From Deinococcus radiodurans R1 = ATCC 13939 = DSM 20539 (GTDB taxonomy: Bacteria; Deinococcota; Deinococci; Deinococcales; Deinococcaceae), in the NCBI RefSeq assembly GCF_000008565.1, contig NC_001263.1, forward strand, positions 1,169,084-1,197,565: 28,482 bases of DNA, written 5' to 3'. A program made the translations under genes and the position numbers. Shown here piece after piece: positions 4,847 to 12,291 of the stretch (positions within the stretch are counted from its first letter, which is position 1; each line of letters begins with the position of its first letter). Below the pieces are notes generated by a model, which was not told where the DNA came from, did no database searches, and saw nothing but the letters and a program-made list of their open reading frames with translations.

Positions 4847-5760
4847 GCGGGCGCAGGCACCGGCGCGGTGCTCAGCGGCATGTTGTCGATCAGCCGCACG
4901 CCGAAGAGCCGCCCCGCGATCAGCACTCGGTTCAGGGGATCGTCGCTCAGCTGGGGCACATCACGCAGGTCCGGCCCCACCACCACCAGGTAATCGAGCG
5001 CCAGCTCCGGCTCGCTCGCCAGCACGTCCAGCCCGGCTTGCCGCAGCCGCCCCGTGTCGCGCTCGCCGCCCGCGTAGGCCGCCTGCACCGCCCGCAGCGC
5101 ACGCGACAGCACGGTGGCCCGCCGTTGCTGCTCAGGCGAGAGGTAGCTGTTGCGGCTGCTCAGCGCGAGGCCCGCGTGCGCCGCTTCCTCGTCGGCGCGC
5201 ACCGTCGGCACGCCCACGATTTCGGAGCGCAGGTTGAGGTCGGCGACGAGGCGGCGCACCACCGCGAGTTGCTGCCAGTCCTTCTCGCCGAAGTACGCGC
5301 GCTCAGGCTGCACGATATTCAGCAGCTTGAGCACCACCGTCGCCACCCCGGCAAAGTGTCCGGGCCGCGCCGCCCCGTCGAGCGGTTCGCTGACCCCGCT
5401 GACCTCGACGCGGGTGCTGAAGCCTGCCGGGTACATTGCTGCCGCCTCGGGATGGAAAACGAAATCGGCCCCCGCTGCGCCCGCCAACGCGAGGTCACGG
5501 TCCAGGTCGCGCGGGTAGGTGGCGAGGTCCTCCGTCGGCCCAAACTGCATAGGGTTGACGAAGATGCTGACCACCACCACGTCGCACTCGGCACGGGCAC
5601 GGCGAATCAGCGTGGCGTGCCCTTCGTGGAGAAAGCCCATTGTCGGCACCAGCCCGACCCGGCCCCGACTTGCGAGTGCCGTCTGCACTTCCTGCGGCGT
5701 GCTCAGAATCTGGGGACGGTGTTCGGTGTCGCTGACCTCATCAGACACGGCGGCGCCCAT
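4843..5760 (-). CDS. panC: Pantoate--beta-alanine ligase
   Basis: 305 aa. It has GLVPTMGFLHEGHATLIRRAR (the HIGH-type motif of PanC), IFVNPMQFGP and YFGEKDWQQL. The exact start is uncertain; the longest ORF overlaps the upstream gene by 20 nt. Confidence 0.9.
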
Positions 5761-6112
5761 CCAGGCCCAGGGCCGACACCAGCGCGTCGAGCAGCCACGA
5801 AATGACCGTCAGCACGATGGCCCCCACGATGGCCGCGCCGAAGCCCGACACGTTCAGGACGGTGACCTGCGCGACCAGCCATAGGACTATGCCGTTGATG
5901 ACGAGGGTAAACAGCCCCAGCGTCAGCAGGTTGATCGGCAGCGAGAGCAGCAGCAGCACGGGCCGGATCAGCGCGTTGACGATCCCCATCACCAGCGCGG
6001 CGACCACGACACTGACCACGTCGGCGCCGGGCGCGAACGACACCCCGTTGTAGACCTGGGTGAGCAGGTACAGGGCCAGTGCGTTGAGCAGCAGTCTGAG
6101 GATGAATCCCAT
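5741..6112 (-). CDS. Small four-TM membrane protein, phage-holin-4_2 / DUF360 (YvlD-like) family
   Basis: 123 aa. MGFILRLLLNALALYLL...ALVMGIVNALIRPVLLLLSLPINLLTLGLFTLVINGIVLWLV is the characteristic DUF360 pattern. Confidence 0.75.
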   Translation of the reverse strand: MGFILRLLLNALALYLLTQVYNGVSFAPGADVVSVVVAALVMGIVNALIRPVLLLLSLPINLLTLGLFTLVINGIVLWLVAQVTVLNVSGFGAAIVGAIVLTVISWLLDALVSALGLDGRRRV

Positions 6113-6870: not shown

Positions 6871-7473
6871 ATGGAGCACTGGATTCAAGTCATTCTGGGC
6901 TTTTCTTACCTCGGCCTCTTTCTGGTCGTGTTCGCCGAAACGGGCCTGCTGGTGGGGGCCGCGTTGCCGGGCGACAGCCTGCTGATCACGGCGGGCATCG
7001 TGGCGGCGAGCCGCAACAGCAACGTGCAGCTCGATCTGGTCTGGGTCATCCTGTCGGTCATCGCGGGCAGCATTCTGGGCAGCTTGGTCGGGTACCTGCT
7101 CGGCCAGCGCTTTGGCCCGGCCATCTTCAACCGCCAGAACTCGCGCTTCTTTAAACCCGAATACCGCGTCCAGGCCGAGGAATTCTTTGCCCGCGAAGGG
7201 CCGAAATCGGTGTTGCTCGCCCGCTTCATCCCCTTTGTGCGTGCAGTAGTGCCCACCCTGGCGGGGGTCAGCAATATGAACTTCACTTCTTTCGCGTGGT
7301 ACAGCGTGCTGGGCGCCCTGCTGTGGGGTGCGGGGCTGCCGGCCCTGGCGTACTTCGTGGGGCAGCGGGTGCCGCACCTCGACCGCTACATCCTGCTGAT
7401 CGTGGCCGTGGTGCTGGTTCTGAGCTTTATTCCGGTGGCGCTTAAGTTGTTGCAAAGTCGCCAGAAAGCCTGA
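6871..7473 (+). CDS. DedA-family (SNARE-associated/VTT domain) inner membrane protein
   Basis: 200 aa. It has FAETGLLVGAALPGDSLLITAGIVAA and ARFIPFVRAVVPTLAGVSNM, the DedA signatures. Confidence 0.85.
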   Translation: MEHWIQVILGFSYLGLFLVVFAETGLLVGAALPGDSLLITAGIVAASRNSNVQLDLVWVILSVIAGSILGSLVGYLLGQRFGPAIFNRQNSRFFKPEYRVQAEEFFAREGPKSVLLARFIPFVRAVVPTLAGVSNMNFTSFAWYSVLGALLWGAGLPALAYFVGQRVPHLDRYILLIVAVVLVLSFIPVALKLLQSRQKA

Positions 7474-8284
7474 GGGTCGCCAGGGCGTCGTCTAGCAGTC
7501 GGCGGCTGGCCGTGAAGGTGGGCGGCAGCTGGGGAAGGTCGCTGACGGTAAACCACTGCGCTTCCTCGACCTCACCGGGCTGCGGCACGATGTCGCCGCC
7601 CGCGTATTCGGCGGTAAAGGCCAGCATCAGCGAGTGCGGAAAAGGCCAGGGCTGGCTGAAGCGGTACTGCACCTGCCGGACCTTCACGCCGACTTCTTCT
7701 CCGACTTCACGGTGCACGGCCGCTTCCAGCGTTTCGGATGGTTCGACGAAGCCCGCCAGCGTGGTAAAGACGTCAGGCGCTTGCCTGGGACCACGCAGCA
7801 GCAAAAACTCGGTGTCCGGCCCTGTCCCGCGCGAAATCAGGACGATGATGGCGGGCGCGACTCTGGGATAGACCCTCAGGCCACAGCTCGGACAGCGCCG
7901 GGCACGGTCACCCTCACCGGGCCGCATAGGGGTGCCGCACGCGCCGCAAAACTGGTGGCTGCGCTGAAAGTCCACCAGTTGCACGGCCAGCCCCGCCAGC
8001 CCGAACAGCCCGTCCGGCAGCACGCCGAAGCACTGACGCAGGCCGACCAGCTGCGCTCCGGCAGGCGCTTCCCCCGTCAATGGCAAGGCAAACACTGGCC
8101 GCTCACCCAGGCGACCCAGTGCAATGACCGCCTGACCGGCGAGGCTATGGCCGCTTGGCAATTCGCCAGCGTCACTGAGCAGAAGTTTTCCCTCCCGGAC
8201 GATAAAAAAGAGGGCGTCCGGCGCGGCGGGCACCTTCAGGTCGTCCACGAAGTCGGCTGGGCGCTCTGTAGGAAAGCGGTTCAT
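7442..8284 (-). CDS. nudC: NADH pyrophosphatase NudC (Nudix hydrolase; NAD-capped RNA decapping enzyme family)
   Basis: The start is ATG 8284 (MNRFPTERPADF...), 280 aa. It has a Zn ribbon (CGACGTPMRPGEGDRARRCPSCG), the Nudix box GFVEPSETLEAAVHREVGEEVGV, and the NudC-specific SQPWPFPHSLM motif. The ATG overlaps the upstream stop (ATGA 8281-8284). The 5' extension of the track ORF to 8899 is rejected. Confidence 0.85.
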   Translation of the reverse strand: MNRFPTERPADFVDDLKVPAAPDALFFIVREGKLLLSDAGELPSGHSLAGQAVIALGRLGERPVFALPLTGEAPAGAQLVGLRQCFGVLPDGLFGLAGLAVQLVDFQRSHQFCGACGTPMRPGEGDRARRCPSCGLRVYPRVAPAIIVLISRGTGPDTEFLLLRGPRQAPDVFTTLAGFVEPSETLEAAVHREVGEEVGVKVRQVQYRFSQPWPFPHSLMLAFTAEYAGGDIVPQPGEVEEAQWFTVSDLPQLPPTFTASRRLLDDALATLRLSGDFATT

Positions 8285-9420
8285 GCTCCGTTCTCTTCCA
8301 GTCGCAGCACGTCCCCGAACGGGAAGCCCTCGTCTTCCAGCCCGCCGGGCGGCACGACCCACAGCGTCGGCGTGGCTGGGGCTTGCTCGGGAAAGTCGCC
8401 GTAGCCGTCGGTGAGGTAAATCAGCACGTCGGGTTCGTGTTGCTCCAGCAGCTCGAAGATGGGCCGGAAGTCGGTGCCCCCGCCGCCCTGGGGCGGGGGA
8501 ATCTCGTCGCCGGGGCGCAGGTCCCAGGGGCCGTAGGCTTCGGTGTCGGCGTAGTAGAGGGTCGCCCGGACGTGTGGGTACGCGCCGAGCACGCCCTGCA
8601 CTTCGCCCACCAGCGCGCGCACCGCGTCGTCGTCCACGCTGCCGGACGTGTCCACCGCAATCAGCGCTGTGAGTGTCTCGTCGTCCAAGGCTTCCAGATA
8701 GAGGCCGCGTCCCACGAAGCGCCGGTCGAAGCCGCCGAAATCTACCGGCGTGCGCGCCAGAAAGCGCCACAGTTGCGCCCGCCAGTCGAGCCGCGCCGGG
8801 GCGAGGCGCTGGAGTTCGCGGTGCATGCCGAGCGGGTCGTGGCCCTGGCCGCCGCTCATGGCCTCCACGCTGCGGGCCTGGGCCAGAGCTTGCTGCCACT
8901 CGCGGGCCACCTGCCGGCCCGGTTTGCCCTGCTTGCCGGGGGCGTCGCTCGGCGGAGCGTCGAGCAGGTCGTCGCCTTCCTCGTCGCCCTCGCCGTCTGC
9001 TTCGCCTTCGAGCGAGGTGTAGACCTCTTCCACGCTCAGCCGTTCCAGATGCTCGTCGCGGCGCGAGTTGGGCGGGGTGGGCAGCCCAGCGGCGTCCACC
9101 ATGCCGTTGACGATGAGGTCGGCGGCGCGGTTCCAGCGCTTCTTTTCACGCGGGCCGCGCCGCTCCACATGCGAGAGCGCGGCGTGCAGCACCTCGTGCA
9201 GCAGCAGGCCGTCGAGCACGTCCGGCGGCAGGCTGGCAGCGACTTCGGGGTTGAGGTAAACGCGCTCGCCGTCGGTGCCGGCGGCCATCACTTCTCGTGA
9301 GGGAACGATCTCGGCATAGAGCAATAGCGTGGCAAAAAACGCCGACTTGCCGCGCAATCGCAGCCGCGAGCCGGAGACGAGACGTTGGAACTCGGGGGTC
9401 ACCCGAACGGGATCGGTCAT
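8281..9420 (-). CDS. Fusion of a putative zincin metallopeptidase domain (HExxH) and a VWA-like domain (DUF2201-type MoxR partner)
   Basis: 379 aa. It has the N-terminal LLLHEVLHAALSH...NRAADLIVN, an acidic linker (EGEADGEGDEEGDD), and a C-terminal VWA with the MIDAS motif LIAVDTSGSVDD. Its ATG overlaps the upstream stop (ATGA 9417-9420). Confidence 0.8.
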   Translation of the reverse strand: MTDPVRVTPEFQRLVSGSRLRLRGKSAFFATLLLYAEIVPSREVMAAGTDGERVYLNPEVAASLPPDVLDGLLLHEVLHAALSHVERRGPREKKRWNRAADLIVNGMVDAAGLPTPPNSRRDEHLERLSVEEVYTSLEGEADGEGDEEGDDLLDAPPSDAPGKQGKPGRQVAREWQQALAQARSVEAMSGGQGHDPLGMHRELQRLAPARLDWRAQLWRFLARTPVDFGGFDRRFVGRGLYLEALDDETLTALIAVDTSGSVDDDAVRALVGEVQGVLGAYPHVRATLYYADTEAYGPWDLRPGDEIPPPQGGGGTDFRPIFELLEQHEPDVLIYLTDGYGDFPEQAPATPTLWVVPPGGLEDEGFPFGDVLRLEENGA

Positions 9421-10199
9421 GAGATTTCCTCCGGAGCAGGGAGCGCGACGGGAAAAAGGGGAGCGAGCAGCACCAGCATCCCCGACAACAAGGAGCTGAG
9501 CACCAACAGCGCCCAGCCGATCAGTTGCACACTCATCCAGCGTCGGGCGCGGGGGGTGGCGTCGTATTCGTCGGCCAGGAAGATAAATTCGCTGTCCGGC
9601 GCCATCACCACGTCCACGGCCAGGGGACGACGCAGCGTCTGTTTGGGCGGCGTGTCGGTGATCCCCTTTTCCACCAGCAGCAGCCAGAGTCGGTCGCTGG
9701 GGACTTTCAGAACCTCCGACTCCTTCAGGGCCAGTTCCGGTTTGTCATCGGAGTCAAGGTAAGACTCGACGTGGGCGGTGGTTTTGATGGGATGGGCGAG
9801 GTCGGTGAGCCGCCCGCCCACCAGGCCGAAAGCCATAATCAAACAGAACGCCAGCCAGATCACGGCCATCAGGGGCACGCCCAGAAACGACAGGAGCATC
9901 AGACCCGCAGCAACGCCCACCAGAAGACCGCTCAAAATCTCTGAGCCGAACCAGCCCAGATAGCCTGCGGCTGAGTCGACGGGTGACATCAAGAGACCGA
10001 CAGCACCCACGCCCCCGGCTATAAATGCAAGCGTGATGCAGGACCAGACCCACCGGTTCAGCTGAGGTCTCGTTTCGGCCCGTGACATGGCCAGCATGAC
10101 CGGCCAGGGCAGCAGCCAGTCGAACACCAGCAGGCCGAGGCCCATCCAGTGCAGGCTCTGGGGCGAGAACCCGGCTAACCAGCTGACCACGCGGTCCAC
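9417..10199 (-). CDS. Uncharacterised polytopic membrane protein (no family recognised)
   Basis: 260 aa with a GTG start and GAGGG 8 nt upstream. About four N-terminal hydrophobic helices are followed by a ~90-aa soluble segment (RLTDLAHPIKTT...DEYDATPRARR) and a long C-terminal hydrophobic segment (WMSVQLIGWALLVLSSLLSGMLVLLAPLF). It lies in the same operon, 4 nt after the ATPase stop. Confidence 0.6.
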   Translation of the reverse strand: MDRVVSWLAGFSPQSLHWMGLGLLVFDWLLPWPVMLAMSRAETRPQLNRWVWSCITLAFIAGGVGAVGLLMSPVDSAAGYLGWFGSEILSGLLVGVAAGLMLLSFLGVPLMAVIWLAFCLIMAFGLVGGRLTDLAHPIKTTAHVESYLDSDDKPELALKESEVLKVPSDRLWLLLVEKGITDTPPKQTLRRPLAVDVVMAPDSEFIFLADEYDATPRARRWMSVQLIGWALLVLSSLLSGMLVLLAPLFPVALPAPEEIS

Positions 10200-10203
10200 G
10201 GGC

Positions 10204-11226
<1,023 letters not shown>

Positions 11227-11290
11227 GAAGGTACCTCGTGAGAAGAAGCGGCGGGCAGCTGCCGAACAGCAACAGGCCGCTCAACTGCCA

Positions 11291-11296
11291 AGCATA
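11291..11296 (-). promoter_or_regulatory. Candidate -10 box for the MoxR operon
   Basis: TATGCT on the minus strand lies about 65 nt upstream of ATG 11226. The same hexamer precedes osmC and the PLD gene. No convincing -35 was seen. Confidence 0.3.
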
Positions 11297-11343
11297 GGGC
11301 GTCCGGCCCGTTCGTTCAGGAAGCCGAGCAACCAAAGAAAACC

Positions 11344-11377
11344 AAAAAAAGCGGCCCCTCCTCTGGAAGGACCGCTT
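11344..11377 (-). terminator. Intrinsic terminator of the LEA-like gene
   Basis: The minus-strand RNA reads AGCGGUCCUU-CCAGAGG-AGGGGCCGCU, a 10-bp stem including two G-U pairs, followed by UUUUUUU (complement of A 11344-11350). It lies 18 nt after the stop. Confidence 0.65.
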
Positions 11378-11394
11378 TCTGGACCGCGCTGAAC

Positions 11395-12291
<897 letters not shown>

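Follow-up and report, generated by a model that had tools for sequence, protein, structure and literature searches.

A probable four-gene operon of Deinococcus radiodurans with an AAA+ ATPase/zincin-VWA core pair, a membrane protein and nudC

Four consecutive minus-strand genes, spanning positions 11226–7442 of a 28,482-nucleotide stretch of the Deinococcus radiodurans R1 chromosome (NC_001263.1, positions 1,169,084–1,197,565; here, the window), encode an AAA+ ATPase, a 5-TM protein, a DUF2201_N/DUF2201 zincin-VWA protein and NudC. The reading that is considered probable, with some reserve, is that of a single operon containing an AAA+/MIDAS-zincin core pair, a sporadic membrane accessory and nudC as a co-transcribed passenger. 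The products of the first and third genes are most likely the functional core and, by analogy with other AAA+/MIDAS systems, would act as a remodelling or processing pair. The analysis bears directly on gene structure, family membership, conservation, selection and the distribution of the genes among relatives.

Organization of the locus

The close packing of the four genes, with the junctions reported in the first-pass annotation of this DNA, was found again. The ATPase gene (10204–11226, minus strand; 340 aa) ends with a TGA at 10206–10204, followed by only 4 nt (gccc) before the GTG start, at 10199, of a hydrophobic ORF of 260 aa, the membrane protein gene (9417–10199, minus strand). The TGA of the latter shares an ATGA (9420–9417) with the ATG of the zincin-VWA gene (8281–9420, minus strand; 379 aa), the TGA of which shares another ATGA (8284–8281) with the ATG of nudC (7442–8284, minus strand; 280 aa). 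The previously noted convergent overlap of the operon end with a dedA-family gene (6871–7473, plus strand; VTT domain, PF09335) also holds: it involves the last 32 nt of nudC, and dedA, which lies outside the operon, is its downstream boundary.

SD-like GAGG/GGAGG motifs can be read 5' of the ATPase, membrane protein and zincin-VWA starts. That of the ATPase (GAGG, 11237–11234) lies 7 nt before the ATG in a leader and candidate promoter region (11227–11345, minus strand), where no match to the sigma-70 consensus was found. An intrinsic-terminator-like hairpin with a 16-pair stem and a T-run (11346–11380, minus strand), which closes a YtxH/LEA-like gene (11395–12291), marks the upstream boundary of the operon, and no terminator-like site was found at the gene junctions. 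With a shared strand, junctions of 4 nt, ATGA and ATGA, and a terminator only outside, the four genes most likely form a single transcription unit, from which we infer co-transcription. The flanking genes are housekeeping genes, and neither defence island nor prophage genes were found near the locus.

The ATPase and the zincin-VWA protein

The motifs and domains initially assigned to the ATPase, the zincin-VWA protein and NudC were upheld by Pfam and NCBIfam matches. In the midasin/MoxR-like ATPase, Walker A (GPPGVGKS) is found at residues 28–35 and Walker B (ILFLDE, within ILFLDEVN) at 93–98; the Walker A/B residues, the sensor-1 Asn and Arg residues (G31, G33, K34, S35, D97, E98, N135, R153 and R204) are invariant. 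The protein matches the Pfam models AAA, AAA_5 (27.8 bits versus a cut-off of 22) and AAA_3, the MoxR model, the latter right at threshold (27.0 bits versus 27); AAA_3 is matched by 10 of 12 homologues of the ATPase at E ≤ 0.001. A PDB profile search identified the AAA domain of midasin as the nearest solved sequence (E 1.7e-17), followed by AFG2/SPATA5, VAT and Rix7, and recovered no MoxR, RavA or CbbQ structure at E ≤ 0.001. Given the AAA_3 score at the cut-off and the failure to recover these structures, the analogy with AAA+/MIDAS systems holds at the level of the clade. The gene is under purifying selection (dN/dS 0.02–0.08), as is that of the partner (0.024–0.026).

In the zincin-VWA protein, PF13203 (DUF2201_N; E 3e-31, 109.5 bits versus a gathering cut-off of 23.2) precedes, in the N-to-C direction, PF09967 (DUF2201; E 2e-19, 70.3 bits versus 26.4). 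The zincin motif HEVLH is at 75–79, with H84 as a further candidate metal ligand, and H75, H79 and H84 are invariant. HExxH is present in 90 of 93 loci; a few orthologues have Q or K in place of the catalytic Glu (E76), so that proteolysis may not be the universal activity. Matches to known zincins are weak, both in the PDB (M48, E 0.087) and in Pfam (SprT-like, E 0.0065, below cut-off). The MIDAS is complete (D257, S259 and S261 of DTSGS, T316 and D338), and its D-S-S-T-D pattern is kept in all readable loci. The VWA fold predicted for the C-terminal domain is confirmed at the level of the AF2 model (pLDDT 82–91), for which the Foldseek matches are VWA domains, including the MDN1 MIDAS domain (8ql1).

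Likewise, RavA-ViaA, CbbQ-CbbO, NorQ-NorD, CoxD-CoxE and midasin (Rea1/MDN1) combine AAA+ modules of the dynein/midasin/MoxR clade with a MIDAS VWA. The window's pair differs from the MoxR/AAA_5-VWA chaperone pairs in the N-terminal zincin domain of the VWA protein, and their known clients (Rubisco, NOR, CODH and complex I) are not encoded near it. The association of a small HExxH zincin with an AAA+ unfoldase also recalls the Wss1/SprT proteases and Cdc48/p97, but by analogy only, as there is no significant homology, the partner ATPase belongs to another clade and the window's protein has no DNA-binding domain.

Conservation of the pair in cells and phages

The survey of the pair covered 80 genome loci; nudC was followed in 49 representative Deinococcus species and 31 non-Deinococcus loci. 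The ATPase gene immediately precedes the zincin-VWA gene in approximately 76 of the 80, across five phyla, the pair being found in Deinococcus, Thermales, cyanobacteria, Chloroflexi and one actinomycete; in the window, the membrane protein gene alone separates the two. Identity of the ATPase across phyla is 57–65%, and the tree of the pair broadly tracks genus and phylum groups (Deinococcus, other Deinococcota/Meiothermus, the cyanobacterium). The ATPase and zincin-VWA genes are an ancient, vertically inherited two-gene module, which is also present in many phages. Homologues are carried by 339 phage records; the two genes are neighbours in the N4-like phage S6, and three small genes separate them in Thermus phage phiFa. 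The first-pass annotation knew of no described link between a MoxR/VWA pair, a fused zincin-like domain, a membrane protein and NudC; the pairing of a MoxR-like ATPase with a metallopeptidase-vWA protein has already been noted in group 2.2 jumbo phages (Iyer et al. 2021, PMC7824862), and is catalogued in Pfam and PHROGs.

The window's proteins are full-length matches of phrog_1297 (ATPase, E 1.5e-80) and phrog_1314 (zincin-VWA, E 2.5e-67). The corresponding phage pair, formed by core genes of the N4-like Schitoviridae with a role in virion assembly or processing that has only been proposed, has the same gene order and retains HExxH and MIDAS. The window's copy differs in being chromosomal, vertically inherited and only 26–31% identical to the phage pair; furthermore, cellular loci add a gene for an LRV-repeat protein, and the window's lineage adds the membrane protein gene and nudC.

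The strength of the PHROG matches and the number of phage records would also fit a domesticated or remnant phage module, the operon being a mosaic of functionally unrelated genes packed by genome compaction only. The flanks of the pair are also hot spots of rearrangement: relatives 95–97% identical to the window show three different downstream states, and repeat hairpins occupy the spacer in sister species. However, cellular copies are far closer to one another (approximately 50–65% across phyla) than to those of phages, the pair tree broadly follows genus and phylum, prophage genes are missing nearby and cellular loci conserve the LRV partner, making such an origin very improbable. An LRV/HEAT-repeat gene is adjacent to the pair, on the same strand, in 61 of the 80 loci, in three different orders, although none is present in the window. 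In these neighbourhoods, the recurrent third partner of the pair is the LRV-repeat protein, rather than NudC or the membrane protein.

The membrane protein

Hydrophobic segments of the membrane protein are at approximately residues 19–37, 53–71, 83–101, 108–128 and 227–249, with a soluble stretch at 129–224. No Pfam or NCBIfam domain was found in it, and the AF2 model obtained for it, with a pLDDT of 51.5, could not be used. With a dN/dS of 0.13–0.16, it is encoded by a genuine gene, evolving fast, yet under purifying selection. Its initial description as an 'orphan' needs correction: the gene is missing from all 80 loci surveyed for the pair, but one distant homologue of equal length (32% identity) is found in a second Deinococcus lineage with no special relationship to that of the window, where it occupies the same slot between an ATPase gene (84–90% identity) and a zincin-VWA gene (79%). 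The protein is a sporadic, lineage-specific accessory, which may serve as a membrane anchor or as an alternative client.

A fast-evolving, sporadic gene of this kind could also belong to a vWA-MoxR-type anti-phage or conflict system, in which the pair would serve as a sensor or as a threshold switch, with the zincin, the membrane protein or NudC as the effector, acting through NAD depletion or membrane damage. NAD-degrading effectors are a familiar defence theme, and the pair has phage homologues. MoxR-vWA pairs have been proposed as the cores of ternary conflict systems containing VMAP, iSTAND, FtsH or beta-propeller components, where a metallopeptidase domain occasionally takes the place of the vWA effector (Kaur et al. 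2020, PMC7159879), and the combination of a MoxR-like/vWA core with a variable third component is shared by the genes discussed here. Unlike those systems, the window lacks VMAP, iSTAND, FtsH, effector-associated domains and effector-type genes, and the third gene of most loci encodes an LRV-repeat protein. PADLOC gave no match for the membrane and zincin-VWA proteins, and only marginal ones for the ATPase (IetA P-loop) and NudC (Nudix). Vertical inheritance, very strong purifying selection and very high conservation across phyla are also unlike the patchy distribution of defence genes, the flanks are of the housekeeping type and NudC itself is a housekeeping equivalog. A conflict system, a role mentioned for MoxR-vWA pairs when the locus was first annotated, is therefore considered very improbable.

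nudC and its association with the pair

NudC scores 244 bits with the NF001299 equivalog model (cut-off, 158) and contains PF09296 (NUDIX-like), PF09297 (Zn ribbon) and PF00293 (NUDIX) domains, the Nudix box GX5EX7REVGEEVGV and the SQPWPFP motif. It is predicted to be an ordinary NAD(H)/NAD-cap hydrolase, sharing NF001299 membership, Zn ribbon, Nudix box and SQPWPFP with E. coli NudC, the NAD(+)/NADH diphosphatase active in NAD-cap decapping. The difference lies in the context, as nudC of crown Deinococcus is embedded in the AAA+/zincin-VWA operon and, in the window, its 3' end overlaps dedA.

The arrangement extends beyond this strain. In 15 of the 49 representative Deinococcus species, nudC immediately follows the zincin-VWA gene, as it also did, within this operon, in four of five further look-ups of Deinococcus NudC; it sits alone, away from the operon, in Deinococcus sp. 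Marseille-Q6407. On the first-pass reading, NudC, and/or the membrane protein, would be the dedicated client or output of a module that would mature, cleave or gate NudC, controlling NAD(H)/NAD-cap hydrolysis at the membrane. Consistent with this proposal, the nudC start overlaps the preceding stop, as in the window, in 17 of 20 nudC-positive Deinococcus loci; D. metalli, D. koreensis and D. aquaticus have the gene within the module, flanked by the zincin-VWA and LRV genes, and in one crown Deinococcus locus (L089) its codons overlap those of both these neighbours. In 19 of the 49 Deinococcus loci, LRV is followed by a further, small Nudix gene, and the presence of two Nudix genes per operon, which exceeds a trivial passenger pattern, leaves room for a functional tie.

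However, in the tree of the pair all nudC-positive loci fall within one crown clade of Deinococcus, so that recurrence of the association in independent lineages, as looked for by neighbourhood analysis, was not observed. nudC is beside the pair in none of the 31 non-Deinococcus loci, and the pair lacks it in basal Deinococcus, Thermales, cyanobacteria, Chloroflexi, the actinomycete locus and phages. Since nudC is limited to a single clade and the pair is without it elsewhere, this amounts to a single origin, with several losses thereafter. Contigs 95–97% identical to the window at the nucleotide level (L081, L082 and L084) retain the ATPase, membrane protein and zincin-VWA genes without nudC, which, in one set of them, is replaced by a 98-bp terminator hairpin. 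NudC also diverges much faster than the pair (48–68% versus 81–88% identity), and is an equivalog-level match that carries no extra domain. By taking into account the single-clade origin, the loss in close relatives and LRV as the usual third gene, the idea of a special NudC-controlling machine was not sustained and is regarded as unlikely; support for a physical or regulatory link to NudC does not extend beyond co-transcription within one genus.

Proposed mechanism

For the preferred reading, a conserved core pair with accessory genes, a mechanism can be modelled on midasin, CbbQ/CbbO, NorQ/NorD and RavA/ViaA. An acidic residue of the client would be captured by the VWA-MIDAS site; the ATPase ring would then mechanically remodel the client, which the fused zincin domain would cleave or hold. 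In most cellular genomes, the LRV/HEAT-repeat protein would be the likeliest scaffold, adaptor or client. In the window's lineage, the LRV gene would have been lost from the locus, with the fast-evolving 5-TM protein wedged between the core genes instead. nudC would have been inserted once, in the crown Deinococcus ancestor, and co-translated, being repeatedly lost since; it is probably co-expressed with the pair rather than mechanistically required by it.

Organization of the probable operon

Four minus-strand genes occupy positions 11226 to 7442 of the window. As obtained from the ORF table and a reverse-strand read, they encode an AAA+ ATPase (340 residues, 10204-11226), a hydrophobic protein with a GTG start (the TM protein, 260 residues, 9417-10199), a zincin-VWA protein (379 residues, 8281-9420) and NudC (280 residues, 7442-8284). 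The ATPase stop codon (10206-10204) is followed, after 4 nt, by the GTG of the TM gene, ATGA overlaps join the TM and zincin-VWA genes (9420-9417) and the latter to nudC (8284-8281), and nudC in turn overlaps the 3' end of the convergent dedA gene (6871-7473, plus strand; VTT domain in Pfam) over 32 nt. SD-like GAGG/GGAGG sequences precede the first three starts of the operon, and no terminator-like sites were found at its internal junctions. The four-gene packing, the junctions and the motifs described in the first-pass annotation are thus correct, every coordinate checked being in agreement. A sigma-70 consensus promoter was sought in the leader and inside the genes and was not found, a test that is uninformative for Deinococcus, and no Rfam families were found in the window.

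The neighbours of the operon are housekeeping genes, namely those of a pilT-like ATPase, panC, dedA, aroE and histidine kinases. Upstream, a 298-residue YtxH-like protein (11395-12291, minus strand) consists of amphipathic repeat units of the KDKAQDV/AQNV type and gives apolipoprotein- or LEA-like matches; it is probably of the desiccation/LEA type, and its gene has its own strong terminator (hairpin and T-run, 11346-11380). A 123-residue protein with four TM segments of the PF04020 'phage holin 4' superfamily is encoded beside panC (5741-6112, minus strand), with no other phage genes near it.

The ATPase and zincin-VWA pair

Scanning 185,579 species-representative genomes with a pattern gave at least 307 zincin-VWA relatives, of which the best 80 loci (49 from Deinococcus, 31 from other organisms) were kept and searched by tblastn with the proteins of the window. 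Among these best 80 of the at least 307 loci, the ATPase gene lies immediately upstream of the zincin-VWA gene in approximately 76; besides the 49 Deinococcus loci, they come from Meiothermus and other Deinococcota, cyanobacteria, Chloroflexi-like MAGs and an actinomycete, with cross-phylum ATPase identities of 57-65%. Both proteins also have full-length matches to phage families (phrog_1297 for the ATPase, E 1.5e-80; phrog_1314, which carries the wrong label 'HNH endonuclease', for zincin-VWA, E 2.5e-67), and tblastn recovered 339 phage records with a zincin-VWA homologue, including N4-like Schitoviridae, cyanophage S-TIM5, Thermus phage phiFa and Bacillus phage G. The phage ATPase gene stands a short way upstream of the zincin-VWA gene within one block, next to it in S6 and separated from it by three small genes in phiFa. 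A MoxR-like ATPase paired with a metallopeptidase-vWA protein has already been noted in jumbo phages, where a role in assembly or processing was proposed (PMC7824862). No functional study of the DUF2201/COG3864 family or of the pair was found in the literature; this very widespread and strongly conserved two-gene module of Deinococcota, cyanobacteria, Chloroflexi, an actinomycete and more than 300 phage genomes is functionally uncharacterised.

The Pfam matches of the ATPase are AAA_5 (27.8 bits), AAA_3 (27.0 bits, equal to its cut-off of 27) and AAA. An alignment of 12 sequences spanning phyla and phages shows no variation in Walker A, Walker B, the sensor-1 Asn or two Arg residues. In a profile search the closest solved sequence is the midasin AAA domain (E 1.7e-17), and no MoxR, RavA or CbbQ structure was recovered at E <= 0.001. 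Because of this and of the AAA_3 score at the cut-off, the earlier 'MoxR-class' label holds for the clade, but membership of the family does not follow. Comparison of the window with metagenomic relatives of 95-97% identity gave dN/dS values of 0.02-0.08 for the ATPase and 0.024-0.026 for zincin-VWA. In two cyanobacteria, Tolypothrix campylonemoides (L056:3070-5169) and Scytonema sp. HK-05 (L071:3195-5294), the ATPase gene contains an in-frame insertion of approximately 370 residues, which starts with Cys after ...RVGSY, ends with ...WCGN followed by Cys and includes LAGLIDADG-like motifs; from these features it looks like an intein with a homing endonuclease.

The zincin-VWA protein consists of a putative metallopeptidase domain (DUF2201_N, PF13203, E 3e-31) followed by a VWA-like domain (DUF2201, PF09967, E 2e-19), and H75, H79 and H84 along with D257, S259, S261 and D338 of the MIDAS are invariant in a 16-sequence alignment. 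Across 93 loci the MIDAS pentad is intact wherever readable and HExxH is intact in 90, its Glu being replaced by Gln or Lys in three (L006, L046 and L063); such replacements are also seen in alignment A1 and in the proteins P0081, P0091, P0093, P0104 and P0120. Since the His ligands and the MIDAS are still intact in the orthologues with a replaced Glu, which are few, their sequences suggest that some copies may bind metal without cleaving, and cleavage may not be universal. The AF2 model has a pLDDT of 76.5 (80-93 for the N-terminal 110 residues and the C-terminal domain); Foldseek retrieved with it only VWA domains, MDN1-MIDAS among them, and the similarity of the zincin domain to solved structures is marginal. 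Deinococcus hopiensis has a second, divergent zincin-VWA copy (P0091, 54% identity, on a 390-kb contig) besides the orthologue (P0025, 85%), which implies that a paralogous or plasmid-borne second module exists in some species.

Neighbours of the pair: LRV-repeat and membrane proteins

Clustering of the neighbouring ORFs identified an LRV/HEAT-repeat protein (PF01816, E 1e-28 to 1e-82) as the usual third partner of the pair. Among the best 80 of the at least 307 loci, its gene adjoins the pair on the same strand in 61 (for example L007:7181-8584, L058:3246-5933 and L065:7787-10717). It lies downstream of the pair in Deinococcus (37 of the 49 loci in this set). In cyanobacteria and Chloroflexi it precedes the ATPase gene, and in Meiothermus-type and actinomycete loci it separates the two genes of the pair. 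A neighbourhood that is kept while gene order is shuffled, as in these three arrangements across phyla, is the classic signature of a functional link. No description of the triad was found in the searchable literature. The LRV gene is absent from the locus in the window and its subclade (L001, L002, L006, L008-L010).

The protein encoded between the pair's genes in the window has five hydrophobic segments and a soluble stretch of approximately 95 residues, and no match to it was found in Pfam, NCBIfam, PADLOC or PHROG. By tblastn its gene occurs in none of the 80 genome loci (the best 80 of at least 307), and a word-indexed search returned a 95%-identical protein as the sole match. Exhaustive HMMER searching added one homologue of 259 residues (32% identity, E 5e-12), which is found on three contigs (72% GC) between an ATPase 3' end 84-90% identical to that of the window and a zincin-VWA 5' end of 79% identity, in a lineage whose distance from the window is no smaller than that of many crown Deinococcus species without the TM gene. 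The helix pattern and a set of residues of the soluble stretch are conserved between the two proteins. The dN/dS with respect to the 95-97% identical relatives is 0.13-0.16, and GC3 of the gene is 0.79; these values indicate a genuine, rapidly evolving gene.

The slot between the genes of the pair is the sole known home of the TM gene, and its occupation in two lineages argues, at the level of gene order, for a functional tie of the TM protein to the pair that is stronger than that of nudC. Whether as anchor, client or LRV substitute, any role of the TM protein is put forward by inference only; its AF2 model, built from 3 sequences, is unusable (pLDDT 51.5). That the TM gene is a decayed LRV gene was considered and rejected, as LRV proteins have no tblastn similarity to the window. 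No direct or inverted repeats of the kind left by mobile elements flank the TM gene or nudC. At the same slot, sister species have a spacer of approximately 90 nt (L001:5912-6000, L002:5910-6000, L006:5913-6000) of tandem heptamer repeats and their reverse complements (e.g. GGATCGT x4 ... CACGTTC x4) forming a long imperfect hairpin, which may serve in RNA processing or be a small mobile repeat.

The position of nudC

The assignment of NudC is at equivalog level (NF001299, 244 bits against a cut-off of 158), and the Zn ribbon, the Nudix box and the SQPWPFP motif are all present. In the best 80 of at least 307 loci, an unbiased set, 15 of the 49 Deinococcus species have nudC directly after the zincin-VWA gene, and none of the 31 loci from other organisms do. 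The association of nudC with the pair extends beyond one strain but, in this set, not beyond part of one genus. In 17 of the 20 nudC-positive loci, the start codon of nudC overlaps the stop codon of the gene before it. Additional NudC look-ups gave the order ATPase, zincin-VWA, NudC, LRV in four of five cases (D. koreensis, D. aetherius, D. aquaticus and D. metalli), three of which add a Nudix protein of 153-163 residues and three of which adjoin uvrD; in the fifth, Deinococcus sp. Marseille-Q6407, nudC is located elsewhere. When the sequences of the pair were concatenated and a neighbour-joining tree was built, a single crown clade contained every nudC-positive locus, with nudC-negative species scattered inside it; basal Deinococcus lineages have no nudC at the locus, a pattern pointing to a single gain and several losses.

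This site differs among contigs that share 95-97% identity with the window. L096 and L097 carry the same four genes; in L081 and L082 the ATPase, TM and zincin-VWA genes are separated from dedA by a 98-bp spacer (L081:2877-2974) that contains a GC-rich hairpin and a T-run; in L084 an unrelated stretch with CGGATTCCG / CGGAATCCG inverted repeats is found downstream (8095-8289). Three downstream states at such identity mark the site as a rearrangement hot spot, at which the presence of nudC varies and the other three genes are retained. NudC has, moreover, evolved much more rapidly than the pair (48-68% versus 81-88% identity by tblastn in the best 80 of at least 307 loci). In part of one genus, nudC is thus probably transcribed together with the module; no comparative sign was found that either needs the other. 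The proposal of NudC as a dedicated partner of the machine is weakened by its restriction to one clade, its loss among 95-97% identical contigs and its faster divergence.

A second small Nudix gene (153-163 residues) follows LRV on the same strand, often with overlapping codons, in 19 of the 49 Deinococcus loci among the best 80 of at least 307 (e.g. L089:7243-7704, L088:7427-7918); it is also found in species with no nudC at the locus and is absent from the window. As two Nudix genes occur repeatedly in the crown-Deinococcus operon, some functional tie of nudC to the module is conceivable, albeit unlikely.

Mechanistic considerations and conclusions

The locus is a lineage-specific variant, with TM gained, LRV lost and nudC retained, of a known but uncharacterised AAA+/zincin-VWA module. 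The catalytic residues of the ATPase are intact, its obligate neighbour has HExxH and a complete MIDAS, selection on both is strongly purifying, and a repeat-protein partner recurs. By analogy with midasin, CbbQ/CbbO, NorQ/NorD and RavA/ViaA, the MIDAS of the VWA domain would bind an acidic residue of a client, to which the ATPase ring would apply force; the zincin domain might cleave or grip the client, with the LRV solenoid, or the TM protein in the window, as possible scaffold or client. An extended version would make the pair an ATP-driven machine for the capture and processing of a specific client, in which the adjacent gene reveals the adaptor or client (LRV in most bacteria, a fast-evolving five-TM membrane tether here), with crown-Deinococcus NudC and the second Nudix protein as true partners, so that an AAA+ machine would control NAD(H) or NAD-cap hydrolysis; we regard this reading, taken as a whole, as improbable. 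The first-pass annotation had also mentioned that MoxR-vWA pairs are proposed as the sensing core of conflict systems. A defence system is unlikely in view of the lack of PADLOC matches for the TM and zincin-VWA proteins, the absence of VMAP, iSTAND or effector genes at the locus, and the vertical inheritance, strong conservation and housekeeping context. Thus, the original observation is confirmed and its interpretation borne out in part, the NudC-centred idea being weak.

What makes the locus interesting is mostly how widely the pair and its LRV partner occur and how well they are conserved, and not NudC. The distinction between core genes and lineage-specific additions is a guide to what to delete and what to pull down, and nudC-plus and nudC-minus variants at 95-97% identity, along with TM-plus and TM-minus species, lend themselves to direct comparison. 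If a role in processing or remodelling is established for the pair, a function would also be assigned to core genes of N4-like phages.
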